A stretch of 64,000 bases of DNA from a virus (IMGVR_UViG_2690315620_000001:1749-65748); one strand, 5' to 3'; shown: positions 2,491-52,940, counted from the stretch's first letter. A program made the numbers and translations. The notes: generated from the letters alone by a model not told the origin.

Positions 2491-2556
2491 ATGTTGTTTA
2501 TTATCGGATTAGGTATTGGTGCTACAATCGGGTTATTAGTTAACGCTATCGGATGA
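2491..2556 (+). CDS. Putative 21-aa hydrophobic peptide MLFIIGLGIGATIGLLVNAIG
   Basis: AAAGGA RBS before ATG; single TM-like helix with GxxxG; antisense to surrounding operon. Confidence 0.4.
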   Translation: MLFIIGLGIGATIGLLVNAIG

Positions 2557-2784
2557 TTTACGTTTTAATTCGTCTTTCATGCGGGCCATTCTATCAGATG
2601 CCGTTACTTCCTTCGCTACGGGCGCTTCAGTCGCAACGACTACGCCTTTCTGCTTCATATCGGCGAGTATTAGCTTTTTAACGTAACCGCTAAAGTTGCG
2701 TTTGCTTACGTGTTTGAGGATTTGTTGGTCGGAGCTATTCGTACGGTTAAATGCGACGGGTTTGGAGAATCGATTCTTTTCGAT
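2536..2784 (-). CDS. 82-aa putative ribbon-helix-helix-like regulator, ATC start
   Basis: AAAGGAGG-7nt-ATC GAA AAG; open frame (M)EKNRFSKPVAFNRTNSSDQQILKHVSKRNFSGYVKKLILADMK... to TAA at 2536; missed by ORF track. Confidence 0.6.
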   Translation of the reverse strand: MEKNRFSKPVAFNRTNSSDQQILKHVSKRNFSGYVKKLILADMKQKGVVVATEAPVAKEVTASDRMARMKDELKRKSSDSVN

Positions 2785-2805
2785 GTTAACGCCTCCTTTA
2801 ACAAC

Positions 2806-2834
2806 ATGATATGAGCGCTAATATCGTTTAATGC
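2806..2834 (-). promoter_or_regulatory. Sporulation sigma (sigE-like) promoter candidate
   Basis: GCATTAA-14nt-CATATCAT vs B. subtilis sigE consensus (T/G)HATAxx-14nt-CATACAHT, just upstream of the module RBS. Confidence 0.45.
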
Positions 2835-2951
2835 ACGTCCGCCTAAAATAAATAAAAAATTCCGCCAGGGATTCGCCCCGACGGATTATGTAAAGCTAAT
2901 AGCGCTAGCTGCTATCTAGCTTATGCGGAACATCGACGAAAAGTGCACGTC

Positions 2952-3302
2952 CTACTTCGATAAATATTCGAGCATCAATTCCTCGGAGCGTTTGCGTAAT
3001 TCAGCGCTTGTATACCGCTTACGTTCTTCGTAACCGGCGTGAATAAAAGCGTATTCTGACGACTCTTTCGTTGATTTCTCGATAATTAACTGCATATTAT
3101 GACGCGTTAAATAAATTTCCGTTACTTTCAAGTCGGCGCGAACTCGTTGTAATGCGCCTTCAACCTTCGCTAAATACGGTCGGGACAGCTTAAACGGTAA
3201 CTTGACGATGGATTCTCGGTCGCGCTCAAAAAGCGTAATAAGCAACGGTAGATATATTTTATTTTCGAAATAACGGATATCCTCCGCTGATATTGACGGC
3301 AT
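2952..3302 (-). CDS. YhjD-like conserved Bacillales protein
   Basis: IYLPLLITLFERDR...PFKL.RPY motif; AAAGGAG RBS; extended -10 TGTTATAAT upstream. Confidence 0.55.
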   Translation of the reverse strand: MPSISAEDIRYFENKIYLPLLITLFERDRESIVKLPFKLSRPYLAKVEGALQRVRADLKVTEIYLTRHNMQLIIEKSTKESSEYAFIHAGYEERKRYTSAELRKRSEELMLEYLSK

Positions 3303-3346
3303 TTAGAACACGCTCCTTTACGTTAATTATAACATATCGCAAACAC

Positions 3347-3386
3347 AAAAAAAACGCCCCACTCCGTTATTAGCGAGTAGGGCGTT
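3347..3386 (-). terminator. Intrinsic terminator after endolysin
   Basis: AACGCCC...GGGCGTT stem followed by T-run on minus strand. Confidence 0.75.
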
Positions 3387-3397
3387 AGGCTTGCGTG

Positions 3398-4090
3398 TTA
3401 TTTCGATTTATTTTCGAGCGCTTTCAGTCGTTGTACAAACGGGATCATTGCGTTCCATACGTAGTATTGATTCACGTTGCGGAACGGATTCTTACCGTCG
3501 GTAATGCCGAGTTCCATCGCTTTCTTGCGTACGGCTTCTTGGTCTGCGTTTAGTTGCGGTTCATTCGTCACGCCTGCCACCTCCGTTTTCGGTTTCGTTA
3601 ATTCTGCGAGCCTATCAGCGATTGCCTTGCGAACAGCCGCCGAACGCCCTTCGTCGAGTATTCTATGCGGACAGTTCTTGCCGGACCAATCGCGATGCCA
3701 GCGGACACGATCGATTCCCCATCCGTATTTTTTAAGTAACTGCGCTGTATATTCGATGGCGTTCGCTTCGGCTTGCGCGTATTTGGCGCCACCACTTCGC
3801 GAATAGCAGATTTCAATTCCGATGCTTTTACGGTTGCCATCGCCGTTTCCATCACCGCAATGCCAAGCGTTACGATTAAACGGAATAGCTTCGATTGCTT
3901 CCTTGTCGTCGATAGCTACGTGATAGCTCGTCGATGCCGTATTGCGTTTCATATAGGCGATTTCATTGCGTGCGGTTGCGTCATTTGCCGTGTTGTGAAT
4001 CGTGATATATTGCGGAGTCATAGCATACGGCGATTTTAGCGAATGTAACGTCGATGCCACGTAATCTTTTACGGTTACGTACGCCATCAC
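3398..4090 (-). CDS. Endolysin, N-acetylmuramoyl-L-alanine amidase (Amidase_2, XlyA-like)
   Basis: ITIHNTAN, AWHCGDG, SIGIEIC, HRDWSGKNCP motifs. Confidence 0.93.
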   Translation of the reverse strand: MMAYVTVKDYVASTLHSLKSPYAMTPQYITIHNTANDATARNEIAYMKRNTASTSYHVAIDDKEAIEAIPFNRNAWHCGDGNGDGNRKSIGIEICYSRSGGAKYAQAEANAIEYTAQLLKKYGWGIDRVRWHRDWSGKNCPHRILDEGRSAAVRKAIADRLAELTKPKTEVAGVTNEPQLNADQEAVRKKAMELGITDGKNPFRNVNQYYVWNAMIPFVQRLKALENKSK

Positions 4091-4326
4091 TTCAACCCCT
4101 TGCGTTCTAGTTCCTCCGCTTGCTTGCGTGCCTTGCGCGTCATTGCGTAGGTATTCTTATACACGCCGTAAAGCGCACCACCCAACGCCAAGCCAGCGCC
4201 TAGTAATACGCCGAATGCGTTAATCGAATCTTGCGTAAACCATTCGAAATATACGTTAATCGTTCCGAGAAATAGTAGTGCCGCCGATAGAAATCCGGTC
4301 ACTAAAATTACGATGTCTTTCGTCAT
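4087..4326 (-). CDS. Holin
   Basis: 79 aa, two TM segments, basic C-tail, directly upstream of endolysin. Confidence 0.8.
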   Translation of the reverse strand: MTKDIVILVTGFLSAALLFLGTINVYFEWFTQDSINAFGVLLGAGLALGGALYGVYKNTYAMTRKARKQAEELERKGLK

Positions 4327-4360
4327 TATAACGTCCCCTTTCCGTTTTTATTTGCGTAGC

Positions 4361-9447: not shown

Positions 9448-9813
9448 TTATCGCACCACCTTATCGATTACGTGGTATAGTTGTCCGTCGTTTGTTTCGA
9501 GTACAAATACTTCGTCGTCTACCGCAACATAGCCGTCCTTAAACGTAATTTGCATATCAACGCCACTGAATGCGCCTGTCACACCGTTAAATGTAGCCGT
9601 CCCTTTAACGTCAGCTTTGCGCTCATGCGGTAATATCGATTGCATTATGACTAGCGAATCCATTTCGATGTCGTCTGCGTCGCCTTCGATTCTAATAGCG
9701 AAGGGGCTAACGGACGTAACCTTTGCGATGTGCGTACGCATTTCTACGTTGTGGCCGTACTTACCGATTAAATTAACAAGCCGTGCGCCTGCGTTTCCTT
9801 CTTCGCGTCCTAT
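9448..9813 (-). CDS. Baseplate spike XkdR-like (DUF2577), probable ATA start
   Basis: Track start at 9741 has no RBS; GGAGGGG-6nt-ATA at 9813 is in frame and adds (M)GREEGNAGARLVNLIGKYGHNVE. Confidence 0.7.
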   Translation of the reverse strand: MGREEGNAGARLVNLIGKYGHNVEMRTHIAKVTSVSPFAIRIEGDADDIEMDSLVIMQSILPHERKADVKGTATFNGVTGAFSGVDMQITFKDGYVAVDDEVFVLETNDGQLYHVIDKVVR

Positions 9814-9828
9814 CGTAATCCCCTCCGT

Positions 9829-20886: not shown

Positions 20887-21803
20887 TAGTTATCACCGCC
20901 TTGCGTCGCGATCGTGTTATCTGAAATGAATTCCGCTAGTTGTTCGGCGTTCGTATTACGCTTACCGTACTGCTTGTGAAAATCTACGTGACACATCTTA
21001 CAAAGCGTGATACCGTTATCTACGTCCGTCCTACATTCGGGATTATCCGCGAAGTTAAGTATGTGATGCGCGTTTATCTCCGCACCTCTTACGTTACAAC
21101 ATTGGCAAGTGTAGTCGTCGCGTTCGAAAACGCCTTCCCTGAACGGCTTATATGCCCGTTGTTGTCTTTTTTGTTCTCGTTCTTCGTCGGTGATGTTCGG
21201 GTCCCTAAGTGCTTCGCTGATCTTATCACTACGACATTGCCGACAGTCCTTACCTTTAAAAAAATTATTTAGATTCGTATGTCCCTGTGTACCACATTTA
21301 CAAATGTAAGGCATAGGCAGAATTGAATTTAAAAAAGAGTCCGCTAGTAACACTTTTCCTTGTTCCTCGAAAAGTTCCCTAACGTCCTCTAATGTGTACT
21401 TACGTTTAGCATCGCCTATTTTTTTGTACCCGCATTGCTTACATGATATTCCAGAGTATTTAGCGGCGCCTAATACTATCTCCGACTGGCTTCCGCACCT
21501 ACATATATATTTTAATTTATCTCCGAATGCGTAAGAAGTTGAAAGTAATTTGCAACCGGATTCAGTAAATATCTGTTCTATTTCTTCGATAGGAGTTGTC
21601 TTGGTTTTAGAAGCCTTCTTACGCCCACAAGACGCACAACTCTTTCCGCGTTTAGCGTTATTCACTGACATAGTACTTTCATTTCCGCAAGTGCAAATGT
21701 AACGCATCGGTACGTCCTTGCTTGTGTACTCTTTTTCTAGTAGTACGAAACCGCGTGCCTCGAAAACCGCTAGGACCTGTTCCATCGTTAGTTTTGCGGG
21801 CAT
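20886..21803 (-). CDS. Free-standing HNH endonuclease with three Zn-ribbon repeats
   Basis: 3x YICxCG...CxxC; VFERDDYTCQCC...HHI...NGITLC..CH. Confidence 0.88.
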   Translation of the reverse strand: MPAKLTMEQVLAVFEARGFVLLEKEYTSKDVPMRYICTCGNESTMSVNNAKRGKSCASCGRKKASKTKTTPIEEIEQIFTESGCKLLSTSYAFGDKLKYICRCGSQSEIVLGAAKYSGISCKQCGYKKIGDAKRKYTLEDVRELFEEQGKVLLADSFLNSILPMPYICKCGTQGHTNLNNFFKGKDCRQCRSDKISEALRDPNITDEEREQKRQQRAYKPFREGVFERDDYTCQCCNVRGAEINAHHILNFADNPECRTDVDNGITLCKMCHVDFHKQYGKRNTNAEQLAEFISDNTIATQGGDN

Positions 21804-21807
21804 ATTA

Positions 21808-23388
21808 TCACTCTCCTACTTCGTTAAAAATACTAGCGTCGACTGTTCCGACTTCTCTTTCAGCGTCGCTTCCAATGCGACTTATAATTTCCCTCGCTTG
21901 AATATCATCTACGCTGTCCATTCGTTTTACCGCTGTAGCGACGTCTATCGTGGCTTTTCCGCCGGTTCTAATCTGCATTATTTCGGCTTGTTCTTTTAGA
22001 TTTTCGGGAAGTCCTGATCTCCATGTAATAATCGGGTACGCCGCTTCGAATTTTTTATCTCCGTGTGCTATATCGAGTAATTGACAGTTGTATAATGCGT
22101 CGCGAATTGCTAGGTTATAGTGCGTCTTAATTCGATTAGTTTTCGAAAGGATCGGCATGAAGCGCGCCTTAATCGCAGCTCCATCTGTATGGGAAGTACC
22201 AGTACCCCCTGCGTTCGCATCCCCGAGTACTGTACCGAATAACCACTGTGGCGTCTCCGCAATTTGAAAAGCCATACCGATTAATGTCTCTAACTCTTTA
22301 AATGCTCCTTCTAGTTTACCGTCCCAAGTCATATAACCTGGGATGGCGTCGTCTTTAGTTATCGGAATGTATGCGCCCGATATTCTGACGTTGCCTCTTT
22401 CTCCTAATTCCGGTCCGTATGTCGGAGGGTCCGAGTGTTTGTAAAGCACCAGATCAATTTGGGCGAGTCTATCGTTAATTGCGATTAATATCGATTCTAT
22501 CGCCTCTAACGTCCCCTTACCTTCCCATGCGTCGTCTACCGATTTATACGGTATATGGTGAACAAGTAACGTCGGCACACCCGTTTCTATAACGTCGACT
22601 TCACGTCCAGTAGCGACTTTTTCTTCGATAGTAAACGTCTGTAACGGATAACCGTATGAGCTATCGACACTACCTTCCGTCGCGGATAGACGATAGCGCT
22701 CGTACATGATGTAACCGGGTAAATGACGCTCTACGTTTAAGAACGGAATGTCCGCTTTTACGCCGACTACCCATTCGACTGATGCGATATTTACCGCCTT
22801 GAACGCCTTGACGTTACCTCGCGCTGTTTCCGGGAATACGCAAGATGCCGAAATATGCTCGATAATAGGCTCCATTACTGCGTCGTCCGGTACGCCCATT
22901 CCTAGTTCCGCTAATGCAGAATAATCTTGACGGTAATCATAGCGCACCTTAATCCACGCATCGCCTCGGTAGCCGTTTGATAACGTCGACTCATGTATCA
23001 ACTTAACTAAATCGTTTTCTTCGACGTAGCTATTAATTGCTACTTGTTGTGGTGTATCATCTGCTAATCCACTGTCGAATATCGGTGGTTCGCCTACGAG
23101 TAAATCCGCTGCTTTAGTTACGAGGATATCTGCGAAATTAGCTGCGATATATAGCTTTTCTAATTGCGCTGCGTGCGGAGTATCCCGAAGTATAGCGGTA
23201 GCACGTTCGTAAATTTCTAATGCTTTTCCGTCATATAACGTTTTCATGCGTTTATATTTAGAAAGTCGTTCCCGTGAGTTTTCTGGTGGAAATACCGCGC
23301 CGACCTTTATTATTTTGTCGGTGTACACGACCGACCCACTCTCGCTTAGTTCGTCGTCCGATTTACGACCGATTTTGAATATGGCGAT
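21808..23388 (-). CDS. Portal protein (SPP1 gp6-like), probable ATC/ATA start
   Basis: Follows terL; AAAGGAGG at 23404-23397 precedes in-frame ATA(23391)/ATC(23388), 20 codons upstream of track GTG at 23328. Confidence 0.88.
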   Translation of the reverse strand: MAIFKIGRKSDDELSESGSVVYTDKIIKVGAVFPPENSRERLSKYKRMKTLYDGKALEIYERATAILRDTPHAAQLEKLYIAANFADILVTKAADLLVGEPPIFDSGLADDTPQQVAINSYVEENDLVKLIHESTLSNGYRGDAWIKVRYDYRQDYSALAELGMGVPDDAVMEPIIEHISASCVFPETARGNVKAFKAVNIASVEWVVGVKADIPFLNVERHLPGYIMYERYRLSATEGSVDSSYGYPLQTFTIEEKVATGREVDVIETGVPTLLVHHIPYKSVDDAWEGKGTLEAIESILIAINDRLAQIDLVLYKHSDPPTYGPELGERGNVRISGAYIPITKDDAIPGYMTWDGKLEGAFKELETLIGMAFQIAETPQWLFGTVLGDANAGGTGTSHTDGAAIKARFMPILSKTNRIKTHYNLAIRDALYNCQLLDIAHGDKKFEAAYPIITWRSGLPENLKEQAEIMQIRTGGKATIDVATAVKRMDSVDDIQAREIISRIGSDAEREVGTVDASIFNEVGE

Positions 23389-23437
23389 TATGTCCGCCTC
23401 CTTTGCGTTTACTTTGCGTCAAAAAGACGCCTCTCTT

Positions 23438-23470
23438 AGTAATATCGTTTTAAGTCTCTGTGTCGCGGAG
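23438..23470 (-). promoter_or_regulatory. Phage-sigma promoter copy (before portal)
   Basis: CTCCGC-N14-AAACGATATTACT. Confidence 0.7.
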
Positions 23471-23486
23471 AACCATTTCCGAAAAT

Positions 23487-25202
23487 TTATAGCCACGAAG
23501 GTTTATTTTGTACTTCGATCTTACGGAGTGATTGCGCTAATTGGAAACACATGCTCAAAGAATCCGGTCCGTCGTCGTGTCGAGCGTTTGGATATAACTC
23601 TAGCTGTTCGATAAGCAATCGATGTTTTTTGCTGAAGCGTATCTTACCGTTTTGGATATCCGGTAAAAGGGCTTCGATACGTAACGTTTTTCTAACGCGC
23701 TGTTTAACTTCTTTGACTCGCGTTGTTCCCGGATACCCGTGACGATGTAACTCTTCTTTTACTTTGTGCGCGAACCACTCTTGTGCCATCTGCGCCTCAA
23801 CCGCGATTCCTGCGTATTGATACTGTAGCGCCTTCTGAACAACGGTATTCAGCAAAATATCGGGATGCACACGCTCTATAAACGTATCGACGATGTAGCA
23901 AACACCGGTTTCTCTATTCCTGGCAAGCGTTACAATCGCCGAGTAATCGCCTTTTTCCTTACCCATCGCGAAATCCACCGCGGCATAGTAGTCGATTTTC
24001 ATGCCTTCGAGGTCCGATTCGTAGAAATATGCGAATTCCTCTGGCTTGAATATTTGCGAATCCGGATCGGTAGGATTTCCGAGATACTCTTGGTTAAATG
24101 CTCGTCCGCCCATTGTTTCGCGCTTCTCCATAAAATATTTATACGAATACATCTGTGGCCATAACGTTTTCGTACCTTTTAACATTTCGTCTTTATTAGC
24201 TTCGTAGAATTCCTCTGACTTCGTTAATGCGTCGGGGCTATCGCTATTGTATATCTCGCGCCAAACGTCCCATAAGTCCTCGCGTTCCGTCCATTCGAGA
24301 ATTGCGGGGAACTTGCGACTTATAAAATCCTTACGTTGCGTTATAACGTGATTAAGAAGCGAATCCGGTCCTAAAATTGTCCCCATATAGATACACATAC
24401 CGCCGAATCCTAGTGCCTCCATCATTTCGGAACGAAACCACTGCAGGTTTTTTGACCGTAACTCCGGCGTATTCGTATTAGCGTTACTCTCTAAATCATC
24501 GAGCAAAAAAAGTCCAACACGTTCGGTTAAATGGCGGAGTCCACGCATCTGCGTCCCCATACCCTTCGCTTCTACCTTCGTACCGGTTGTCGTTATAAAT
24601 TCGAGTTTATTGTCGACCTCATTTGCGGAAGCCTTCGGGTGTAAAAGTTCACCGAAGTCGCTACGAAGCTTTTCGTTAAACTTGAGATTCTGCGATGTAA
24701 ACTTAACGAAGTCGCCCGCTACGTCCGTCGTTTCGGACACCTCTACGATGTATTTCTGCTTACGGAATACTACCTGGTGACATAAAAAAGCGTTACTAAG
24801 ATACGCGGTTTTCGCATGGCGTCGTCCTACCGACCATGCTACGTTAGTTTGAGTATTGCCCTTCGCTACGTCGTCCAATAGCCCACATAGTACACGGTGG
24901 AACTCCGCAGCATCCTCGTACGATTGACCTTCCGGTATTAAATTGACCTCGTTAAGCGGATTTTTACCGTCGGAAAAATATTCGTATGTGAAAAATAGTA
25001 AATCGTCCTCACACCGATGTATTCGTTCTAGCCGACGTAATTCCGCCAGCCTATCTCGGTAATCTACGCCTAATCCTGCGTTGAATATATCGTCGATTGA
25101 ACCGTCAAATTTCGTTTCAATTGCGTTAATGTATTCCGCATATGTTTCGATCAGCTCAGCGCGCTTATTACGCTCTAGCCACTTGCCGCTTACCCACGCC
25201 AT
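23487..25202 (-). CDS. terL: Terminase large subunit
   Basis: Walker A-like GRRHAKT, LLDDLE, QEY, AVDFA...DYSA, HDDGPD nuclease motif. Confidence 0.93.
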   Translation of the reverse strand: MAWVSGKWLERNKRAELIETYAEYINAIETKFDGSIDDIFNAGLGVDYRDRLAELRRLERIHRCEDDLLFFTYEYFSDGKNPLNEVNLIPEGQSYEDAAEFHRVLCGLLDDVAKGNTQTNVAWSVGRRHAKTAYLSNAFLCHQVVFRKQKYIVEVSETTDVAGDFVKFTSQNLKFNEKLRSDFGELLHPKASANEVDNKLEFITTTGTKVEAKGMGTQMRGLRHLTERVGLFLLDDLESNANTNTPELRSKNLQWFRSEMMEALGFGGMCIYMGTILGPDSLLNHVITQRKDFISRKFPAILEWTEREDLWDVWREIYNSDSPDALTKSEEFYEANKDEMLKGTKTLWPQMYSYKYFMEKRETMGGRAFNQEYLGNPTDPDSQIFKPEEFAYFYESDLEGMKIDYYAAVDFAMGKEKGDYSAIVTLARNRETGVCYIVDTFIERVHPDILLNTVVQKALQYQYAGIAVEAQMAQEWFAHKVKEELHRHGYPGTTRVKEVKQRVRKTLRIEALLPDIQNGKIRFSKKHRLLIEQLELYPNARHDDGPDSLSMCFQLAQSLRKIEVQNKPSWL

Positions 25203-25386
25203 CCACAACGCCTCCTTTTCGATATGTATTGCGCCACATGGACGCTTTATTACGCTAAAGTCAAAGTGATTTTTTGTGCCGGCTTATGTTCGGCCACCTG
25301 GTAACGGGTTTTGCCGGTACGCCTTTGGGGGATTCGAATTGTTTCCGTTTCATACGCAATTCACACCGTATATTTATGCGCTTCTA

Positions 25387-25414
25387 GCTTTGGATAATCT
25401 TTATTATGTAAACT
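25387..25414 (+). other. dif-like Xer recombination site
   Basis: GCTTTGGATAA-TCTTTA-TTATGTAAACT: 11-6-11 layout; right arm equals B. subtilis dif XerD/RipX arm. Confidence 0.7.
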
Positions 25415-25746
25415 CGATTGTTCTTCAACCGTTGTCACTACGCCATTCATCCGCTATACGCAACTTAACGTTATACATTAATTATGCAGCGGTCGTTGGG
25501 CGTAGTAATTCCGCATACTTACGATAAGTAACCGGCATACCCTACGCCCCACCTCCTGCATACGATTTGCATACGCTATTTCCAAAGCGTTTGACCCCTA
25601 CGTCCGCAAGGCGCCTCTGCCCGGTGCTACCCGCCCTACCTACGTACTCACCCCGCCTATATAGCGCCTACCCATGACGGCATATGTCGCCCACCCTATC
25701 GGAGTTCCTTCTATTATATGCGCCGTTATAAAGTACGTCCGACACG

Positions 25747-26115: not shown

Positions 26116-26147
26116 GTGTCCGATTCACCTCCGTTTAATTATTCCGC

Positions 26148-26709: not shown

Positions 26710-26712
26710 CGC

Positions 26713-28032: not shown

Positions 28033-28106
28033 ATTATCGTCCCCTTGTCGTAGTTTCGTCGTTTAATGTCCGCCGACAATATAAAAAGACGCCCTTTAAG
28101 GACGCC

Positions 28107-29103: not shown

Positions 29104-29296
29104 TTCGCTATCCCTCCGCATCCTAAAATACGAAAGGGTCGGACGGAGCACACCCGCCTCATGCGTCACCCTTGCGTTTGTTTATGTATTACTAGCGAGC
29201 CTTACCGCTATTCACACGGAGTTTGCTCGCTTGTCATTGCGTTTATTGCCCTTCATATACTAGGATAGAAACTCCGCTATAATATGGTTACCTGCG

Positions 29297-29860
29297 TCAT
29301 AAATCGCTCATTTTATACGTAATTACCGGCTGCCTGCGCGTAAATTCGTCGTATTTCTGCTTGCGTTCTTTATTGCGTGAGTGAACGTTAGCGTCGCGCA
29401 AGGCATCTTCGTAGGCACTCCTTTTACGGCGCTTCGGCACGGAGTAATCACGCCCGTCCATTCCGATATTCATTGCGGCAGTGTATGGTGCCTCGCCTTT
29501 CTGCGTTAAACCCTTCGCCTCATGCGCGCCCTCGCGTCGTCTAGCGAGCTGTATATCGGACAGGAACGGATATTCAGTGGACGTCGCTTTATTCGATGCC
29601 GTGTCCGTTAATTCTTCGTATAGCGCTAGGTTCGTAAGCTGATCGAGTAGATGCGCATCTAACGGCGGTGTTTTCGGCTCGTAACCGCCCTCTAGCGCTC
29701 TAAGGCGTGCAGGCTCGTGATATTCCGAATGTGCTAGGGCATAGGCGTCACCTACGCACTTTATCCACGTTAGTCGCTCCGTACGGTCAAGCCCTCGCTT
29801 TGTAGCCGTTCTTATTGCGTTAATTTCGCGTCTTAATGTGTCCGTATATGCTTCCGTCAT
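29297..29860 (-). CDS. Conserved-looking hypothetical protein coupled to sigma-R4 gene
   Basis: 187 aa; L.EELTD....K....EYPFLS..Q..RR motif; ATGA overlap. Confidence 0.65.
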   Translation of the reverse strand: MTEAYTDTLRREINAIRTATKRGLDRTERLTWIKCVGDAYALAHSEYHEPARLRALEGGYEPKTPPLDAHLLDQLTNLALYEELTDTASNKATSTEYPFLSDIQLARRREGAHEAKGLTQKGEAPYTAAMNIGMDGRDYSVPKRRKRSAYEDALRDANVHSRNKERKQKYDEFTRRQPVITYKMSDL

Positions 29861-30189
29861 GTTGTAGCCTCCGTTTCATTTTCGTATGTTAATTCTCCGC
29901 TAAGCCACGCCCAGCTTTCGTAAACTGCGTCAATGTTAACGACTGCTGCGTCAATATGCGTGCTTACGACGTCCTGTCCGACGCCCATATGTGCGCCCGC
30001 GACCTTCTGCGTTAAATCCTCTACGTACACTAGCCGCAAAGCCTCCGCTTGCCTGTCCGTTAGATTAGCGCGCTTAACGGCGTCTGCAAAGTCGACTAGC
30101 GTGTCGCTGGCGTTCGTGTCTCCGACGTAGCGGCGCTCGGATAATGCGTGTAGATTGCGTAGTATTGCCTTCGCTTGGCTTGCGCTCAT
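29857..30189 (-). CDS. Sigma70 region-4-like HTH transcription factor
   Basis: LTDRQAEALRLVYVEDLTQKVAGAHMGVGQDVVS. Confidence 0.8.
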   Translation of the reverse strand: MSASQAKAILRNLHALSERRYVGDTNASDTLVDFADAVKRANLTDRQAEALRLVYVEDLTQKVAGAHMGVGQDVVSTHIDAAVVNIDAVYESWAWLSGELTYENETEATT

Positions 30190-30218
30190 TATTTATCGCT
30201 CCCTTACGTTTAATTTCG

Positions 30219-30247
30219 TTGCATCTTGCGCATACTTGCGTTATAAT
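30219..30247 (+). promoter_or_regulatory. sigA-type promoter
   Basis: TTGCAT-17nt-TATAAT upstream of the rightward gene. Confidence 0.7.
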
Positions 30248-30281
30248 TACGTTAATTAACTAACATCGGAGGCTCACCGCT

Positions 30282-30650
30282 ATGCCTAAATCAACCGCAC
30301 TCTTAGACGGATTCTCATTCGTACCATCGGACGGCCTGCCCGTCGTCACACTCGATAAACAGAAACGCTTTTACCTTAACGCTGGGCTACGTAGCTTTAT
30401 CGGAGTGGAGGCGTATAACCGCATTGCCATCGCATATGATCCCGTTAATAATGCGCTAGCCATCGTAAAGCCAGAGGCGGGCATCGCTGCAGCGGACGGC
30501 TCTTATTACACCGTAGACAAGCGTCATTACATAAGTGCGCGCCGTTTTTTACAGCGATATCCGATTGACCTCGCCGATGCTCCGATATTCTTCGAGTATG
30601 CGACGGCTAGCGAAGATGGGACTACGTTTATTTTCCGTTTAAAAGCGTGA
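30282..30650 (+). CDS. Hypothetical protein, possible AbrB-like fold
   Basis: GGAGG RBS; VTLDKQKRFYL...R...G pattern; own promoter. Confidence 0.65.
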   Translation: MPKSTALLDGFSFVPSDGLPVVTLDKQKRFYLNAGLRSFIGVEAYNRIAIAYDPVNNALAIVKPEAGIAAADGSYYTVDKRHYISARRFLQRYPIDLADAPIFFEYATASEDGTTFIFRLKA

Positions 30651-32517
30651 GTAGACGTTCACCTATCGCTTGGATTACGTTTACTGTAACGGCGTTGCCC
30701 GCTTGTTTATAGCGTTGTGAATCGGACAAGCCTGCGTCGACTACCGTTTGATGCTGTTCATCCGTAAAGCCTTGTAGACGCCAACACTCGAGAGGCGTTA
30801 GCTTGCGTATGCGGTAACGAGGTGCATCGGCTACTTTTATGCCTTCGCCTTTATTCGTCGTTAATGTAGGCGCTAATCCTGCGTCAATATCGAATACTTG
30901 ACCGTTCATTCCTCTACCGCTAGGATTCGTATTGCCTAGGACACTAATCGCTACGCCGTGTTTATCTTGCGCCGTTAATGTGGATGATTCTTCGTCGTTA
31001 TCCTTGAATCTGCGACCGTTTTGGCGCTTTTCTAAACGATCAGGAGTTAACACCGGACGGACTTCTTCCGCCTCTAGTACCGCATTTTGCGTTTGGTTAC
31101 GGTTAAGTCCGCGCCAGTCACTCGCAGATAGACACACTGCTACGTCCTGTTCATCACCTATTCCATCTTTCCTGTTGTACTTGACTGGCGTTTGCTCGAC
31201 GACGCCCTGATTTATATTCGACGCTTCGAGTGTATTAGCGATTTGCTTACCTACACGACCTCTGCGCGTATTGCTATCGGGAAATTGGAAGTTTACGGCA
31301 TCGCCTACGGCTGCCATTGCGTAGCCTTGCTTCGTTGCTTCACGGATTGGTAAGCCTTGTTCTTCCGCTATCTTCGGTTCTCGATGTCCTCCGCCCATTG
31401 TCGTAAGAGTAGGCGAAATGTGGTCAGCGTCATATACACGCTTGATTGCGTCGTGCCCTTTTAAGTCGATGTGTCCGACCATGCGAGGTTCTTTATATTC
31501 GCGAGCGGTAATGGTTGGAGCTACACCTTGATACATACGCGCTTTTCCTTCGTGTCCGATTTGGGAAACGTCGAATACCGTAGGCTCGTCTTGTCCGCGA
31601 TCTTCTAACTGTGCTACAAGTGCAGCCGTTTTTTCTTCCGATAAATAATACTTCTCGTCCACCGACGCTTCTAATACGTCACGTAATCTCGTAGTCACTT
31701 CCGTTTGCTCCGGCCAGTCGAAGTTGAACGTTTTTGTATCGGCGTATCCGCTGATTCGACGTTTCCCCTTCGCAACTACGTTTGTCCCTTCGATAATCCA
31801 TTCGCTAGGCTCTACGATATCGTCACGCAATGCTACGATAAATATTCGCTCTCTATTCTGCGGTACGCCGAAGTATTTCGAATTCAATACGTTGAAATCT
31901 ACGTGGTATCCGATGTCATTTAACGTGCTTACGATTACGTCTAGCGTTTTACCTCCGTCGTGACCTACGAGTCCTTTTACGTTTTCTAGCAGAATAGCAC
32001 GAGGTTGCTTCGTCTTAGCAAGGCGTGCTACTTCGAAAAACAAAGTTCCGCGAGTATCATCGAAGCCTAATCGTTTGCCAGCGACACTGAACGCTTGACA
32101 CGGAAAACCGCCGACTAATACGTCATGATCCGGTACATCTTCCGCAGCGATTGCCGTAATATCGCCCGCAGTAGGCTCGCCGTATAACGCTGCGTACGAC
32201 TGATTGGCGAATTTATCAATCTCGGAAGCTAGTACGCAATTACCGCCTAAACGGTTGAGAGCCGTTTCGAATCCTCCGATACCGCTGAATAATGATACGT
32301 AGTTGAACGGTTTACCCTCGTAAGATACTTCGTTTGTTTGCGACATTTTGCGTTCCCCTTTCGTTTTTGATTCGTTTACATTTACCGCGATAAGTCCTCC
32401 AGGTCGTTTACCGCCTTGATTTCCGCAAGCTATTGCCGGCATTATTCCGAAGGTATCGTGAACTCGGTTTTGATATTTATCGTTCGTTATGAATCCTAGT
32501 TTTATTATTTCGGACAC
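30628..32517 (-). CDS. Multispecific DNA cytosine-5 methyltransferase
   Basis: LFSGIGG, GGFPCQAFS, ENV, QNRERIF, QAGNAV motifs; long variable region of repeated TRD-like units; second RBS/ATG at 32346. Confidence 0.93.
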   Translation of the reverse strand: MSEIIKLGFITNDKYQNRVHDTFGIMPAIACGNQGGKRPGGLIAVNVNESKTKGERKMSQTNEVSYEGKPFNYVSLFSGIGGFETALNRLGGNCVLASEIDKFANQSYAALYGEPTAGDITAIAAEDVPDHDVLVGGFPCQAFSVAGKRLGFDDTRGTLFFEVARLAKTKQPRAILLENVKGLVGHDGGKTLDVIVSTLNDIGYHVDFNVLNSKYFGVPQNRERIFIVALRDDIVEPSEWIIEGTNVVAKGKRRISGYADTKTFNFDWPEQTEVTTRLRDVLEASVDEKYYLSEEKTAALVAQLEDRGQDEPTVFDVSQIGHEGKARMYQGVAPTITAREYKEPRMVGHIDLKGHDAIKRVYDADHISPTLTTMGGGHREPKIAEEQGLPIREATKQGYAMAAVGDAVNFQFPDSNTRRGRVGKQIANTLEASNINQGVVEQTPVKYNRKDGIGDEQDVAVCLSASDWRGLNRNQTQNAVLEAEEVRPVLTPDRLEKRQNGRRFKDNDEESSTLTAQDKHGVAISVLGNTNPSGRGMNGQVFDIDAGLAPTLTTNKGEGIKVADAPRYRIRKLTPLECWRLQGFTDEQHQTVVDAGLSDSQRYKQAGNAVTVNVIQAIGERLLTLLNGK

Positions 32518-33074
32518 TCAATCGCCCCTTTCGCCGTAATCTCCGCCATAAAACGCTCAGCTTCCGCAATTAAATCGTCGTAACTTCCGTCATTAGTCAA
32601 CGTATAATCTACCTCGAACCCATCGATATATTGCTCGGTCGGATGCGTTAAGTCCTCGTAGGTAAACACGTCACCACGCGCCTGTGCACGCGCTATACGG
32701 ACGTCATCGCTCGCAGTTACACGGACAATCGTAAAACCATTCGCACGTCCCCACGCTATTTCGTCGGGCTGCCTTCCGTCGGATATGACGATGCCTTCCG
32801 TAGAACGCCTTTCTGCGTATAGCTGAACGAATTGCTCGGCGTGTCGTATCCAAACGTTGCTATCGATTTCGCGGCATAGCTGACCGAATTGCTGATAGAC
32901 TGCGCGAGGCTTTCCGCTAGTAAAGAAGTCCTCCGCGAATATCTTCTGCGCGTAATATTTCAGCGATGTACCGAAGCTGACTTCTTCAAAGCCGTAGTTT
33001 AGGCGGAGGTGCTGCGCCATAGTCGACTTACCGCTGCGCATTTTACCGACGATCATTATCTTCGGAATCGTCAT
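32505..33074 (-). CDS. Deoxynucleoside monophosphate kinase
   Basis: GKMRSGKST P-loop, Q.FG...R, SDGRQPDE, H.TE. Confidence 0.8.
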   Translation of the reverse strand: MTIPKIMIVGKMRSGKSTMAQHLRLNYGFEEVSFGTSLKYYAQKIFAEDFFTSGKPRAVYQQFGQLCREIDSNVWIRHAEQFVQLYAERRSTEGIVISDGRQPDEIAWGRANGFTIVRVTASDDVRIARAQARGDVFTYEDLTHPTEQYIDGFEVDYTLTNDGSYDDLIAEAERFMAEITAKGAIECPK

Positions 33075-33529
33075 CGACTCACCGCCTGCTCTGCGAGCGA
33101 ACGGTAAAGCTCGTTAATCTCATACGCTTGCTCTTTTAGCGTCTGTTCAACTTCGTAAAGTCTGCGTGAGATATTCGCTAGTAATTCGATGACTGTCGGC
33201 GATGCTTCTACGGGCGTGCCTTCGTCCGCTACTTCGTAAGTTGCCGGTGCTTGTTCGCCGTATGTCGTCTGTAGTGCGTCGTGTGTTTCCGTTACAAGTT
33301 CGAATCTATCGAAATACAATCCGGATATAAACGACTTGTTATGCACGTCATTATCGTCATCTACGAAAGACACCTCGTCCCTTTCTACGCTGTATACTTC
33401 GTATACTTTTCCGACAGTTACGCTATAATTGAAATCTCCGCCAATATATCTAACCTTATCGCCAACTTTCGGCATCTCTTTTAACGTCATCCTCAATCGC
33501 TCCCTCTCCGTAATATCAGTCCACCCCAC
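33071..33529 (-). CDS. Hypothetical protein (KVGDKV small beta-domain plus coiled coil)
   Basis: ORF track; coupled overlaps. Confidence 0.6.
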   Translation of the reverse strand: MGWTDITERERLRMTLKEMPKVGDKVRYIGGDFNYSVTVGKVYEVYSVERDEVSFVDDDNDVHNKSFISGLYFDRFELVTETHDALQTTYGEQAPATYEVADEGTPVEASPTVIELLANISRRLYEVEQTLKEQAYEINELYRSLAEQAVSR

Positions 33530-34115
33530 GGCGAACTATTTCGATTCCTACCGTTTGCCTTCCGAATTCCCACGCCTCTGATTCGGTTGCTACTAATACG
33601 TCGATGCGGAAGCCCTTAATATCTCCGCCAGTATCGCTCGCAATCGCCTTAAACGTCGTGCCGTCGCCTAACGTCACCCTAACGATGCTGCCGAGCGGAA
33701 ATTGCCGAGGGTCGACCGCAATTACGCGATAGCTCTCGTAGTAAATCGTATGGCGAACATCTACGCCTGTTTTCGTTATGCCGGTGCAGCCCGAATCGCA
33801 AAGCGCGACGTACGCCGTTGCTTCGTATGCTATCGTTTCTCTGCGTGGGCTAGCCGATCGTGACGGCTGTTGCGGAGCTTGCTTCGGCGTTTCTTTCACC
33901 GCAACTTGTTCCGCCTTAATTTCGTTAGCCTTCCGTTTGTCTAATGCCGCCGCTAGTGACGCTTGCCTGGCGTGCACGTTATGCGTTAGCTCTGCGTCAT
34001 CTAGCGCTGGATAGTACGTGAATTCTGGCGTAGGTGCCATCGTTGTGTGGCCGTTAATGAATAACGCGATTGCTACGAATAGCGCGTATAGTGCCGTTAA
34101 ATACCTTTTTCGGAT
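33516..34115 (-). CDS. Secreted/anchored 3D-domain cell-wall protein, probable ATC start
   Basis: EATAY, IAVDP, DTGG.IKG..IDV 3D motifs; AAAGGTG-7nt-ATC gives signal peptide (M)RKRYLTALYALFVAIALF. Confidence 0.85.
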   Translation of the reverse strand: MRKRYLTALYALFVAIALFINGHTTMAPTPEFTYYPALDDAELTHNVHARQASLAAALDKRKANEIKAEQVAVKETPKQAPQQPSRSASPRRETIAYEATAYVALCDSGCTGITKTGVDVRHTIYYESYRVIAVDPRQFPLGSIVRVTLGDGTTFKAIASDTGGDIKGFRIDVLVATESEAWEFGRQTVGIEIVRRGVD

Positions 34116-34717
34116 GGAATCGCACCTTTCTTCTTGGAGGGGCTTTTCCTCCACAAGTGCGCGTGTTCGGTTAATTCACTCTCAACAACACACCTGCCAT
34201 TGTATTTAAATGGGATGTCGCTAAGTAGCCCCTTATTTTGCCTTCTACGTATCGTTGAATGCGGGACGCCTAGTATCTCCGCGGCTTGTTGTGCCGTCAC
34301 TAATCCTAATTCGGAAATAACTCGCAACTCCACTTCTTTATTTTCTCGGTATATTTTATTGGCCTGTACTATTAATTCCGGATGATGAACTCGCATATGT
34401 TCAGCTCTTGTTGTTATTTCCAAATTATCAATAGAGTTATTTGTGTTATCCCCATCGATGTGGTGCACGATTTCTTTCTTAGATAAACATCTACCTATGT
34501 GCTTGGCCATAATATATCTGTGCAAAAGTATATAATTACTTTTCTCTACCATTTCAAAATACTTTGGATCTATTAATTCTTTATGGATATACGAGTACCC
34601 GTCGGACTGCATCGTACGTCCGCCTTTCCATTGAGAGTGCTCATGGCCATACTTGACGTACTTTTCTACTGATTCATTTTCTTTAGTCAGTCCTTTATTC
34701 CACGCCAATAGAATCAC
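34097..34717 (-). CDS. Free-standing HNH endonuclease with C-terminal HTH
   Basis: WKGGR, HRYIM, VHHIDGD..NN..DNL; likely TTG start at 34708; AT-rich. Confidence 0.88.
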   Translation of the reverse strand: MILLAWNKGLTKENESVEKYVKYGHEHSQWKGGRTMQSDGYSYIHKELIDPKYFEMVEKSNYILLHRYIMAKHIGRCLSKKEIVHHIDGDNTNNSIDNLEITTRAEHMRVHHPELIVQANKIYRENKEVELRVISELGLVTAQQAAEILGVPHSTIRRRQNKGLLSDIPFKYNGRCVVESELTEHAHLWRKSPSKKKGAIPSEKGI

Positions 34718-35526
34718 TCCTTATCGAATAGAGAGTCCGTCCAAGGTTCGACGGCTACAACCGCTTTCCTAATATCCTCGCTTAATCCAGCTATTTCCGC
34801 CTGCGCCCCGTTACCCGCTTTACGCTTACCGTAGAAGTCGAGGATGGCACGAAGGTTAGCGGAAATGACACCGTTACACGATGTAGCTTGCGGTAGGACT
34901 GCGCGAGCATCTTCGGCGGGTATTCCGTATGAACGGAGATTATCGTACATTTCTTGAATCTGACGCATACAGTCTGCGAAATAATCATCGACAGAACTAC
35001 GTGACTCCACTACTTCGCCGTAAACATCTTCCTTAATAAAGGCGTCCGCGCTACTTTTCTTTACGCTATCAGGCACAACGTAGTCAAATCCGCCCGACTT
35101 ATCGCCGCTACCGAACCTCACATAGCGCTGTGACTGTATGCTGAACGACCAACCTACGCGATGCCTCGTTATTTGTGCTAATAGTGCGCGGGAAATGCCT
35201 TCTACTGCGAAGTTGTACGATAAATGCTCTAGCGTCGAGGTATGTCCGCTTGATACGATCATTCGGATTAGACGGTCGGCGTCCGTTCCGCCTTTGCCAT
35301 CGCTAGCCTTCGTTTTGAAATAACGTTTGCCCTCGTTTGCTACGATTTCCGACGGCTTGCCTGGCGAATAGCACGTTCGGATTGCGGTTAGTGCTAACGC
35401 CTGCCCGTCCGTAATAGTCGGTTCTTCATGCGTATGGGAATCGATAATGCCCTCGATTGTTTCGCGGAAGTCCTCCGCCAGTTGCGTATGTGAAATGAGC
35501 GTTACCTTGCGTTGTATTTGCGTCAT
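34714..35526 (-). CDS. thyX: Flavin-dependent thymidylate synthase
   Basis: GHTSTLEH, ISRA...Q..RHR, SQRY, EDAR.VLP, AQ.EI. Confidence 0.95.
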   Translation of the reverse strand: MTQIQRKVTLISHTQLAEDFRETIEGIIDSHTHEEPTITDGQALALTAIRTCYSPGKPSEIVANEGKRYFKTKASDGKGGTDADRLIRMIVSSGHTSTLEHLSYNFAVEGISRALLAQITRHRVGWSFSIQSQRYVRFGSGDKSGGFDYVVPDSVKKSSADAFIKEDVYGEVVESRSSVDDYFADCMRQIQEMYDNLRSYGIPAEDARAVLPQATSCNGVISANLRAILDFYGKRKAGNGAQAEIAGLSEDIRKAVVAVEPWTDSLFDKE

Positions 35527-51304: not shown

Positions 51305-51474
51305 CCAAGTCGCACCACCTTTACCATGCGATAGTAGTCCGCCTCGTCGCCGTCTGCGTCTAAAGTACCGTTGTAGTCGTAGTCCGCTTGGTAGCGTCCG
51401 TGTAAAGTTGGTAAATATTGCGTGTTTAAATCCGGCGAATCCGGGTTATAATAGTTAGTGTAGTAGTTAGGCAT
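51301..51474 (-). CDS. 57-aa Tyr/Asp-rich protein
   Basis: GGAGG RBS; MPNYYTNYYNPDSP...; below track cutoff. Confidence 0.6.
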   Translation of the reverse strand: MPNYYTNYYNPDSPDLNTQYLPTLHGRYQADYDYNGTLDADGDEADYYRMVKVVRLG

Positions 51475-51582
51475 TGCGTTAACCTCCGTTTAAGTTTCGT
51501 TTTATTTTTAAGGAAAGTGGAACGTTTCCGGTAAACTTGCGTATACTATAGTAGACAAGTGAAGTATCCTCACAATAATATA

Positions 51583-51611
51583 TTGAATAAAGATTCATCA
51601 TGCGTTATAAT
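51583..51611 (+). promoter_or_regulatory. sigA-type promoter antisense to phage sigma gene
   Basis: TTGAAT-17nt-TATAAT. Confidence 0.6.
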
Positions 51612-51656
51612 AACTTTTGAAGGCATAATTAAATAAGCCTACGTAATACGAATTTA

Positions 51657-52277
51657 TTAACCGACATGCACTGTTGGTGCCGTGAAATAGTCGTAATAAC
51701 TTCCATAGATTGATTCATCATAATGTTTAGATAAATTACGAATTCGCGATTTTACAGTTTTGTCGGTAGTGCCGATTTGCTTGGCGGCTTTTCGGTACGA
51801 ATCAGTTTCGATGAATGCTGACGCTGATGTGAGAGTTAGTTCGTTAGCATTCGATAGTAAGAACGTGACTAGTTGGCGCTGGTCGCGTTTTTTTATTCCC
51901 TTAATCTCGTCATCTTCTGTCGTTGGCGCGACTTCGATGATTTCGTACACTTCGTTTAGAATTCCGTCGTCATCCTCGTACATTACTTCGGTGGTTCGGT
52001 TATCGCGTAGTGTTCTTTTTCTGGCTAAATCGATGCAGCCGAATTTTATGGCGCTGTATACTGCGTTTTTGAATTTTCCTTGACCATCGAACTTAGTAGC
52101 GATGTCGAGTAACTTTTCGTTTATCATCGATTCGACGTCCAGTTCGTCTAACTTGTACCTCCGAGAGAAAGTGCTTACTATTCCGAATCCCCCTTCGTAG
52201 ATATATTCGTAGATTTCGCAAAATGCTTTTTCGCATTTCGTTGTTTGATACCGTAGTACTATTTCGTTGATTGGCAT
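51657..52277 (-). CDS. Phage sigma70-family (ECF-like) sigma factor
   Basis: Region 2 (AF.EIY...D.ES...KFD..GKF..AI...CID..RK) and region 4 HTH (SYRKAAKQIG...TVKSRI). Confidence 0.8.
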   Translation of the reverse strand: MPINEIVLRYQTTKCEKAFCEIYEYIYEGGFGIVSTFSRRYKLDELDVESMINEKLLDIATKFDGQGKFKNAVYSAIKFGCIDLARKRTLRDNRTTEVMYEDDDGILNEVYEIIEVAPTTEDDEIKGIKKRDQRQLVTFLLSNANELTLTSASAFIETDSYRKAAKQIGTTDKTVKSRIRNLSKHYDESIYGSYYDYFTAPTVHVG

Positions 52278-52298
52278 GTTTTGTATTCCTCCTATAAT

Positions 52299-52330
52299 AG
52301 TATTATCGTTTCTAATTTCAAAGTGCGGAG
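52299..52330 (-). promoter_or_regulatory. Phage-sigma promoter copy upstream of the sigma gene
   Basis: CTCCGC-N13-AAACGATAATACT. Confidence 0.8.
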
Positions 52331-52452
52331 TAGATATTGAAAAGTTTTTAAAAATTGTTTATTTACTTACTCCTTAGATAATAATATAATTAAAGTGGTT
52401 GAGAAAGTCAACCCTTTTTTATAACTTTTGTCACAGGGAGAGAATTAGGTCT

Positions 52453-52662
52453 ATGGTATCGTATGAAAAACTACGGAGTTTACTAGAATCTCGCGGAATT
52501 TCCTTCCGTACTTTACGAAAAGAAGTCGGCATTACATCGAACGTTGCGGCCAATTTAAACAACGATCGTCCCGTATCTATCGAACGTTTAGCGGAAATTT
52601 GCCTGTATTTAGACGTCCCTATCGAAGCTGTCGTCGAAGTACTACCGAAGGAAAGCGATTGA
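52453..52662 (+). CDS. Cro/C1-type HTH regulator (repressor candidate)
   Basis: MVSYEKL..L..RGI...L...VSIE.L..IC.YLDVPIE.VVE; divergent from sigma gene. Confidence 0.85.
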   Translation: MVSYEKLRSLLESRGISFRTLRKEVGITSNVAANLNNDRPVSIERLAEICLYLDVPIEAVVEVLPKESD

Positions 52663-52687
52663 GGCGCCGTAATTGGCGTCTTTTTTA
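52662..52687 (+). terminator. Intrinsic terminator
   Basis: AGGCGCC-GTAATT-GGCGTCT then T-run. Confidence 0.75.
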
Positions 52688-52730
52688 TTTCTTCGATAAA
52701 TGGTAAAATATTCTGCGGAGGTGTGCGACT

Positions 52731-52940
52731 ATAGACGTTATGTTGCGTTGTAACTTGCGCGACCGTCGCTTAGATCGCGGACTTACGCAGTATGAGCTAG
52801 AAGTACTATCGGGCGTTTCTCGTCATACGATTTCTGCTTACGAGAACGGCAGCTCGAAATTACAGGTTAAGACTGCGGTAAAGTTTGCGATTGCCCTCAA
52901 CTGTACGCTTGACGAATTATTCGAATATAAGCGTATATGA
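52731..52940 (+). CDS. XRE-family HTH regulator, possible ATA start
   Basis: LTQ.EL...GVSR.TIS.YENG; GGAGG is 9 nt from in-frame ATA(52731) but 18 nt from ATG(52740). Confidence 0.8.
   Translation: MDVMLRCNLRDRRLDRGLTQYELEVLSGVSRHTISAYENGSSKLQVKTAVKFAIALNCTLDELFEYKRI

Follow-up and report, generated by a model that had tools for sequence, protein, structure and literature searches.

ATC and ATA as putative start codons behind strong Shine-Dalgarno sites in five genes of a Bacillota prophage

The viral stretch IMGVR_UViG_2690315620_000001:1749-65748 (64,000 nucleotides, analyzed whole and called the window here) belongs to a myovirus-like prophage in which five genes appear to be translated from ATC or ATA. 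In each of them, a strong Shine-Dalgarno (SD) site is followed at the expected distance by an in-frame codon of the ATH type (ATA, ATC, or ATT; AUH in the mRNA). The genes encode a PHROG 17574 protein, an XkdR-like baseplate protein, the portal, a secreted 3D-domain protein, and a small helix-turn-helix (HTH) protein of the XRE/Cro type. We describe the sites, compare them with the starts of related genes, and weigh what such starts would do for the prophage. The features are listed below, with positions counted from the first letter of the window and energies given for pairing with the 16S rRNA tail.

2536..2784, minus strand: PHROG 17574 gene, 82 codons, proposed start ATC 2784-2782
2792..2799, minus strand: SD site AAAGGAGG, 7 nt before ATC 2784, duplex -12.0 kcal/mol
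2861..2885, minus strand: terminator-like hairpin upstream of the PHROG 17574 gene
9448..9813, minus strand: XkdR-like DUF2577 baseplate gene, 121 codons, proposed start ATA 9813-9811, matches DUF2577 and phrog_579
9822..9826, minus strand: SD site GGAGG, 8 nt before ATA 9813, duplex -12.9 kcal/mol (rival ATG 9741, -1.7 kcal/mol)
21808..23388, minus strand: portal gene, 526 codons, proposed start ATC 23388-23386, matches SPP1_portal and phrog_533
23397..23404, minus strand: SD site AAAGGAGG, 8 nt before ATC 23388, duplex -12.9 kcal/mol
33516..34115, minus strand: secreted 3D-domain protein gene, 199 codons, proposed start ATC 34115-34113, 3D domain found
34125..34131, minus strand: SD site AGAAAGG, aligned spacing 6 to ATC 34115, duplex -10.7 kcal/mol
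52661..52682, plus strand: terminator-like hairpin between the first XRE gene (52399-52662) and the ATA-started XRE gene
52717..52723, plus strand: SD site GGAGGTG, 7 nt before ATA 52731, duplex -15.3 kcal/mol
52731..52940, plus strand: small XRE/Cro-type HTH gene, 69 codons, proposed start ATA 52731-52733, HTH_3 at residues 9-63

Sequence context of the five sites

An earlier note on this DNA had reported the five ATC/ATA codons behind strong SD sites, and all five lie where it had placed them, each 6-9 nt past such a site. GGAGG precedes most genes of the prophage, and the mean duplex energy among its canonical genes is -11.5 kcal/mol (n = 89 in the window). The SD duplexes of the five ATH sites span -10.7 to -15.3 kcal/mol and are thus within or above the range of the canonical genes; the one ahead of the XRE gene is stronger than those of 94% of them. 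The rival canonical codons ATG 2658, ATG 9741, GTG 34154, and TTG 52743 form duplexes of only -0.8 to -1.7 kcal/mol. All five reading frames are open at full length. No in-frame ATG, GTG, or TTG is found at the N-terminus of the PHROG 17574, XkdR-like, and portal genes. Of the remaining two, the 3D gene has a GTG 13 codons upstream that lacks an SD site, and the XRE gene has an ATG and a TTG that are 18 and 21 nt from its GGAGG.

The frequency with which these codons would fall at such positions by chance was estimated from the GGAGG sites at the 5′ ends of open reading frames (ORFs) of at least 80 codons. There are 35 such sites in the window, 25 of which have ATG, GTG, or TTG at 3-13 nt. Four of the 35 lack any canonical in-frame start. 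One of these, at 60708, is set aside because an ATG in another frame accounts for it, and the other three carry an ATH codon at 7-8 nt. When the XRE site is counted as well, ATH is at the SD-defined position in 4/4 cases, with a chance P of ~3e-4 given that 6.6% of the codons in 15 long genes are ATH. When the window was searched for ATH codons preceded by SD runs of at least 6 nt, there was no further candidate without an upstream, SD-led canonical start, and we therefore consider the list of five complete.

Two of the codons also do not appear to be products of assembly. In a check of read support, a contig at word depth 284 was found to span 22000-35000 with no differences from the window. 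This contig derives from the sole public DNA run with the sequence (Logan contigs), which is probably the source of the window's own assembly; the runs listed for the sequence include no RNA run. Because it is identical at both positions, ATC 23388 and ATC 34115 are not consensus errors of the assembly. Termination-reinitiation was considered from the geometry of the neighboring genes, and only the 3D gene, with its 19-nt overlap with the upstream gene, has an arrangement that fits; the other four starts are separated from the upstream stop. The portal start is ~98 nt past the terL stop and the XkdR-like start is 15 nt past the stop of its upstream neighbor, and the PHROG 17574 and XRE genes each sit behind a terminator-like hairpin.

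The alternative that bears most directly on these observations is that the ATH codons are not starts at all. The nearest canonical codons (GTG 23328, ATG 9741, ATG 2658, GTG 34154, and ATG 52740 or TTG 52743) would be used instead, and the frame upstream of each would be untranslated. Gene callers do pick canonical codons, as in the public call for the XRE gene (P0001), a 66-aa form that begins at ATG 52740, and GTG 23328 may have a bulged SD site of its own. However, ATG 9741, ATG 2658, and GTG 34154 are essentially without SD sites (-1.7, -0.8, and -0.8 kcal/mol), ATG 52740 is not conserved in the XRE homologue of genome G201, and protein sequence is conserved upstream of the canonical codons in the portal, XkdR-like, and PHROG 17574 genes. 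We regard this alternative as very improbable. The comparisons with relatives that follow give the details for each gene, and support for an ATH start, as judged from sequence, is strongest for the portal and XkdR-like genes.

Portal gene

In the portal frame, a stop codon lies 10 codons upstream of ATC 23388 and the next canonical codon, GTG 23328, lies 20 codons downstream. A neighboring ATA (23391) is only 5 nt from the SD site. A megablast of window positions 21000-26000 against the phage collection returned no match. Matches to the portal protein occurred in only 2/200 sampled genomes of the host family, in three loci of genome contigs, and in six loci of metagenome contigs, two of which were new and usable. 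In total, 19 distinct portal genes with 5′ flanks were gathered from GenBank phages, IMG/VR, and genome and metagenome contigs. Duplicates were removed (L056 equals L055; L060 and L112 equal L059; L111 equals L062; L006 and L008 equal L063; L009 equals L064), three fragments without a 5′ end were dropped (L068, L069, and L114), and L116, at 23% identity, was also left out.

At the homologous codon, these 19 sequences have ATG in nine cases, ATC in four, GTG in three, and TTG in three; the start of L061 is ambiguous between GTG and an ATG three codons on. The four ATC portals are those of the window, L057, a Lysinibacillus capsici prophage (L063; NZ_PXXX01000022.1), and the phage record KY038360.1 (L004), the last of which has an in-frame TAA two codons ahead of its ATC. 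The spacers between SD site and ATC are completely different among the four, and the ATC itself is kept. The window N-terminus, I-A-I-F-K-I-G-R-K-S-D-D-E-L-S-E-S-G-S-V, aligns position by position with the N-terminus of L055, M-A-F-L-G-I-G-R-K-S-D-A-E-M-S-E-S-G-S-V. This alignment indicates that the 20 codons ahead of GTG 23328 are conserved coding sequence and that the homologous start is ATC 23388 rather than ATA 23391.

The start codon has changed repeatedly among these genes. On a maximum-likelihood tree of 17 rows, ATC at the portal start requires at least three changes, and a well-supported clade of eight (100/99) holds three ATC, three GTG, one TTG, and one ATG. Among the 10 closest portals (at least 69% identity, with two later-found ATG relatives included), only three start with ATG, compared to 67/89 canonical genes of the window. 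ATC portals are also present in the phage genomes G202 and G205, which have direct terminal repeats and an estimated completeness of 100%, and their presence in such complete genomes argues against decay. From these comparisons, we hold with high confidence that ATC 23388 would be the portal start.

XkdR-like baseplate gene

The XkdR-like frame has a stop codon five codons upstream of ATA 9813 and its first ATG (9741) 24 codons downstream. The DUF2577 and phrog_579 alignments begin only at residues 22-25 and leave 14-18 N-terminal profile positions unmatched. A motif conserved in relatives, E-G-x-[GA]-[AG]-x-R-L, is found at window residues 5-12, upstream of ATG 9741. The relatives themselves start close to the same place, with ATG exactly at the ATA position in G203, GTG one codon later in G202, and ATG ATG two and three codons later in G205. 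The homologue in G201, which is 73% identical, retains the ATA along with the same SD site. ATA 9813 is very likely the start of this gene, as predicted from the motif and the position of the relatives' starts. Separately, the DNA identity of window and G201 over 9766-9828, set against a protein identity of 73%, suggests a mosaic junction.

PHROG 17574, 3D-domain, and XRE genes

The gene at 2536..2784 was labeled RHH-like in the earlier note, a name that does not hold: neither a ribbon-helix-helix (RHH) match nor any other significant Pfam match was obtained, and the gene belongs to PHROG 17574, of unknown function. The hairpin at 2861..2885 lies upstream of it, which suggests that the ATC-started gene opens a new transcription unit. 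Its frame has a stop codon 11 codons upstream, and the next canonical codon, ATG 2658, is 42 codons downstream; a start there would remove 42/82 residues, including the first half of the profile, whose position 1 aligns to residue 2. In 43/43 viral relatives (IMG/VR loci, not all distinct), a canonical start is present within a codon or two of the ATC, and by our reading of the 43, these are ATG in 40, TTG in two, and GTG in one. The closest relative (L015, 78% identical) reads AAAGGAGG, 10 nt, and ATG AGC GAA AAG AAC CGT TTT, and the window reads AAAGGAGG, 7 nt, and ATC GAA AAG AAT CGA TTC. We consider ATC 2784 a likely start for this gene.

Just upstream of the SD site of the PHROG 17574 gene, and past the terminator-like hairpin, lies a conserved noncoding element (2805-2836, minus strand) that reads ...GCATTAAA(C/T)GATATTAGCGCTCATATC(A/G)T... 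and recurs upstream of homologues (L011-L017) in at least six otherwise diverged phage loci. The prophage encodes two sigma-like proteins (29857-30189 and 51657-52277), and the element could be a promoter for one of them or an operator.

The first 19 nt of the 3D gene overlap the end of the upstream HNH gene (34097-34708). A stop codon is found 20 codons upstream of ATC 34115, and the next canonical codon downstream is 25 codons away. The in-frame GTG 34154, 13 codons upstream of the ATC, is the one with no SD site and a duplex of -0.8 kcal/mol, and a start there would put 13 mostly acidic residues ahead of a signal-like segment. All seven relatives (7/7) start canonically just before a basic and then hydrophobic N-terminal stretch. 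The exact position of the ATC is taken by ATG in G205, and in G201 and L072 an ATG follows one codon further on; the start is GTG in both G202 and G204, ATG in G203, and TTG, six codons later, in L075. An apparent ATT at the start position in L075 was examined and rejected, as it lies in the end of the upstream gene and the real start is the TTG. These placements make ATC 34115 the probable start of the 3D gene.

The XRE gene is the weakest supported of the five. Its frame has a stop codon eight codons upstream of the ATA, with ATG 52740 at +9 and TTG 52743 at +12 nt, and the duplex for ATG 52740 is -7.3 kcal/mol. The only close relative, a homologue in G201 that is 67% identical, has the same -10-like TAAAAT, the same SD site, and the same spacer, followed by ATC. 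It has CAA in place of ATG 52740, and the TTG 21 nt from GGAGG is the sole canonical codon common to both. In a 59% homologue (P0002), the N-terminus extends one residue beyond that of the ATA-started form. Searching with the protein yielded nothing beyond the window's own call and a single homologue, and three distant viral XRE loci were uninformative. On balance we lean toward ATA 52731 as the start, and if this is correct, the public annotation is three residues short.

The prophage and its host

The window corresponds to G000:C31:405305-469304 and is contained within a 4.39 Mb genome of 41 contigs. The host belongs, by its sequence, to the Bacillota and to the family that includes Lysinibacillus, an assignment made because a genome of the same family (G138) is identical to a Lysinibacillus capsici contig across the portal region. 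The GC content of the prophage is 46.8%, and that of the host genome is 37.0%. A PHROG scan of 90 and a Pfam scan of 52 translated ORFs describe a myovirus-like prophage of ~64 kb with nearly all genes on the minus strand, and ~40 ORFs in the window were left with no known function after both scans. The map below runs from high to low coordinates, from the integrase to the cargo unit.

62999-64000: integrase
53-62 kb: replication genes
52399-52940, plus strand: two XRE genes, beside divergent promoter-like sites
next: DNA polymerase, ribonucleotide reductase, thymidylate synthase, dUTPase, methyltransferases, and several HNH genes
head and tail block: small and large terminase, portal (21808-23388), scaffold, major head protein, sheath, and tape measure
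baseplate: PBSX-like genes, including the DUF2577 (XkdR-like) gene
then: fibers, holins, and amidase
2-2784: small cargo unit

The divergent promoter-like sites (52362-52411, 10/12 matches each) separate the leftward early genes from the plus-strand XRE pair, and this region is probably the lysis-lysogeny switch. Besides the two sigma-like proteins mentioned above, the prophage encodes two large DNA methyltransferases and at least four HNH endonuclease genes. Among the replication genes, a GGAGG at 60708 had been suspected as a frameshift and was rejected, as it is served by an ATG in another frame. That frame is an unannotated 34-codon membrane ORF (60592-60696, minus strand) with GGAGG 7 nt upstream, which encodes the hydrophobic peptide MTEYGTVLFLLYMALIGSGLFVW... 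and whose stop codon overlaps ATG 60595 of the replication-initiator gene in an ATGA arrangement.

ATH starts in the host genome and the possibility of a regulon

The count of GGAGG sites at ORF 5′ ends was extended unchanged to the whole host genome. It contains 1055 such sites, 921 with canonical starts and 42 without any, and the canonical codons counted in this census were ATG 732, TTG 139, and GTG 95. At 20 of the 42 sites without a canonical start, the codon found at 5-11 nt is ATH or CTG; of these 20, 17 are outside the window. Examples of these candidate ATC, ATT, ATA, or CTG starts are found at C32:169238, C31:396076, C26:1348, C18:53339, and C21:174208. Most of the 17 look like real genes, including those for a lipoprotein, a major facilitator superfamily (MFS) transporter, and a hydrolase, and they are probably truncated by gene callers. 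At C32:169238, the congener G207 (87% identity) retains the ATC and G191 (78%) has ATG, and the gene with ATT at C31:396076 has an adjacent paralogue with ATG. The host infC gene starts at ATT behind GGAGGTG (C31, ~521.3 kb; L097), which is the usual autoregulatory arrangement. The 68 tRNA genes of the host are ordinary, and none of them is in the window. The host's own ATH starts suggest that its translation machinery accepts these codons behind strong SD sites without any involvement of the phage.

This result bears on the second alternative, which the earlier note had raised as a translational regulon opened when the fidelity of initiation factor 3 (IF3) drops, possibly through a phage factor. 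AUH starts are disfavored by IF3, and infC relies on such a codon for its autoregulation. In a conditional regulon, translation of the ATH genes would rise as this discrimination falls with growth state, in late infection, or through a phage factor. The ATT at the host infC and the ~40 window ORFs of no known function leave room for such a scheme, as does a Staphylococcus aureus study in which output from the ccpN AUA rose from ~10% to ~30% of AUG output in rich medium (PMC13009471). Against it, the five genes are in different transcription units and phases of the life cycle, namely the lysogeny-side XRE gene on the opposite strand, the nucleotide-metabolism block, the late head and baseplate genes, and the post-lysis cargo unit. 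ATH starts are also not confined to the phage, given the 17 GGAGG-led ATH/CTG candidates outside the window, two of which were verified. No phage tRNA gene was found in the window, and no translation-factor-like domain was found among the 90 PHROG-scanned and 52 Pfam-scanned window proteins, with ~40 ORFs being of unknown function. With a host that uses ATH codons without the phage and an ordinary infC ATT, we consider a regulon quite unlikely.

Ordinary initiation as a probable attenuator, or drift

The reading that we favor, with reasonable confidence, is ordinary near-cognate initiation that acts as a fixed, per-gene attenuator of low-copy proteins. A strong or extended SD helix would place the P site of the 30S subunit on the ATH codon 6-9 nt downstream, initiator tRNA would pair with the first two bases of that codon, and the protein would begin with Met. 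Initiation would then take place at a fraction of the ATG rate, resulting in a low constitutive output. The effect would be a turn-down, gene by gene, of proteins needed in few copies: the portal, a protein of the baseplate center, a regulator, and a secreted protein that acts on the wall. A virion requires ~12 copies of the portal and a few of the baseplate center, and the five gene products are plausibly all low-copy. The high-copy structural genes (major head protein, scaffold, sheath, and tube) start with ATG behind GGAGG or AAGGAG. Across related phages, the ATH codons are kept or toggle with canonical codons at, or within a few codons of, the same position. In this respect, the inference of the earlier note that the ATC and ATA codons are real starts is supported by relatives of all five genes, and its IF3 or phage-factor regulon finds no support. 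Its other suggestion, a dimmer for low-copy proteins, fits both the gene set and, by analogy, the attenuation measured for ATA and ATT in Bacillota.

Several observations weigh against the attenuator reading. That initiation occurs at the ATH codons and that output is lowered would both follow from sequence and analogy, and we infer, rather than observe, that low output is selected and not simply tolerated. The ATC is unique to this prophage for the PHROG 17574 gene (0/43 relatives) and the 3D gene (0/7 relatives). In the XkdR-like gene, the SD region and the first 16 codons are DNA-identical between the window and G201 (L054; 9766-9828), and the ATA common to both may stem from one recent exchange rather than independent conservation. 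A start at ATG 52740 or TTG 52743 would leave the HTH_3 domain of the XRE protein intact. GTG 23328 in the portal gene has a computed, bulged SD pairing of -13.7 kcal/mol and could act as a second start. The idea that stronger SD sites compensate for ATC in the portals was not supported by duplex energy (mean duplex -14.1 kcal/mol for ATC versus -14.4 kcal/mol for the others, P = 0.40), and the occurrence of AAAGGAGG before 4/4 ATC portals versus 5/15 other portals is only weakly supportive (P = 0.03). Lastly, the enrichment over the host is modest when compared like for like, at 3/28 GGAGG-led ORFs in the window versus 17/913 in the host (P = 0.019).

Some of these points would be expected from tolerated drift or decay, in which ATG, GTG, or TTG codons mutated to ATH and strong SD sites sustain enough translation. 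The ATH codons would then be near-neutral leftovers, and some of the genes, especially PHROG 17574 and 3D, would be early pseudogenes. Prophages do decay, the two ATC codons that are private to this prophage could be start losses on the way to a pseudogene, and the start codon turns over quickly in the portal clade. However, the five frames are intact, and in at least three lineages the portal ATC has been kept or has arisen anew, with the surrounding spacers fully diverged. Complete phage genomes with terminal repeats have ATC portals, as does a phage record in GenBank. In addition, an ATH codon at the exact SD-defined position is expected after random start loss in only ~7-13% of cases per gene. 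We consider drift or decay unlikely overall, but a serious rival for the two private ATC codons.

Relation to known non-canonical starts

The mechanism itself is already known; what is new is the instance. In Escherichia coli, infC, with its AUU autoregulation, and pcnB, also with AUU, are reportedly genes whose sole ATH start is limited by IF3. The host described here likewise has ATT at infC, and a difference from the five prophage genes is that infC involves feedback on the factor itself.

The closest counterparts are in other Bacillota. In the S. aureus study, retapamulin profiling mapped AUA or AUU starts of infC, cvfC1, ccpN, and citZ, all behind extended SD sites, and AUA/AUU reporters gave ~10% of AUG output, with up to 30% for ccpN in rich medium (PMC13009471). 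The window resembles this set in having a host of the Bacillales, an ATH codon at a rigid, optimal distance behind a long SD site, and a codon conserved among relatives; ccpN, which is shared with Bacillus subtilis, encodes an HTH repressor, like the XRE gene of the window (PMC13009471). The differences are that S. aureus has four such chromosomal genes per genome, whereas the prophage has five of ~94 genes, three of them with ATC, and that AUC is absent from the text of the S. aureus paper (PMC13009471), whereas the genes here are structural and regulatory genes of a phage known from sequence.

In a study on Listeria monocytogenes, changes of the rsbW start from ATG to ATA or ATT are described as weakening, with reporter output in the order ATG > ATA > ATT. 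The same study gives an ATC start of rnhC and an ATT start of infC as confirmed and counts 6/2265 core genes with fixed non-canonical starts (PMC13068326). This system is again in the Bacillota, uses ATA, ATT, and ATC as lower-output starts, and has codons that toggle between clades to set stoichiometry (PMC13068326). It differs in frequency (6/2265 genes versus 5/~94 in the window, Fisher P = 3e-5, a rough cross-species figure), and the Listeria analysis did not extend to phage genes (PMC13068326). In Enterococcus faecalis, the pilus tip gene ebpA reportedly has a rare ATT start that attenuates expression and a downstream ATG that was wrongly annotated as the start (PMC4447247). Like the portal and baseplate genes, ebpA encodes a structural-assembly protein of the Bacillota; it is a single chromosomal gene with ATT rather than ATC or ATA (PMC4447247). 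For phages, the re-annotation of SPP1 reports 72 AUG, three UUG, and five GUG starts and no AUH (PMC6316719). Our literature search, which covered main texts, turned up neither AUH-started portal genes nor a report that phages are enriched in AUH starts.

Significance

The new features of this instance are the proportion of prophage genes at ATC or ATA (5/~94, or ~5%), the three cases of ATC, which is less documented than AUU and AUA, and a portal start for which at least three lineages have ATC and which elsewhere switches among GTG, TTG, and ATG. A practical consequence concerns annotation. Standard gene callers shorten such proteins or misplace their starts, and calling with canonical codons only would cost the portal its 20 conserved N-terminal residues, the 3D protein its signal peptide, and the PHROG 17574 protein half of its length. 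A bolder reading, which we regard as a long shot, is that weak starts are under selection and have evolved again and again as a means of setting stoichiometry in the morphogenesis modules of Bacillota phages, with portals cycling through ATC, GTG, TTG, and ATG and with ATC repeatedly fixed behind a full AAAGGAGG. If this were true, AUH starts would be many times more abundant in phages as a class than in their hosts. The boldest version would add IF3 sensitivity of the AUH set, with output going up as the burst of late phage mRNA dilutes free IF3, and low-copy proteins would then be timed without a dedicated regulator. For phage biology, a portal start with ATC in at least three lineages and with ATG in only 3 of the 10 closest relatives suggests that the dosage of portal to capsid protein is set at initiation.

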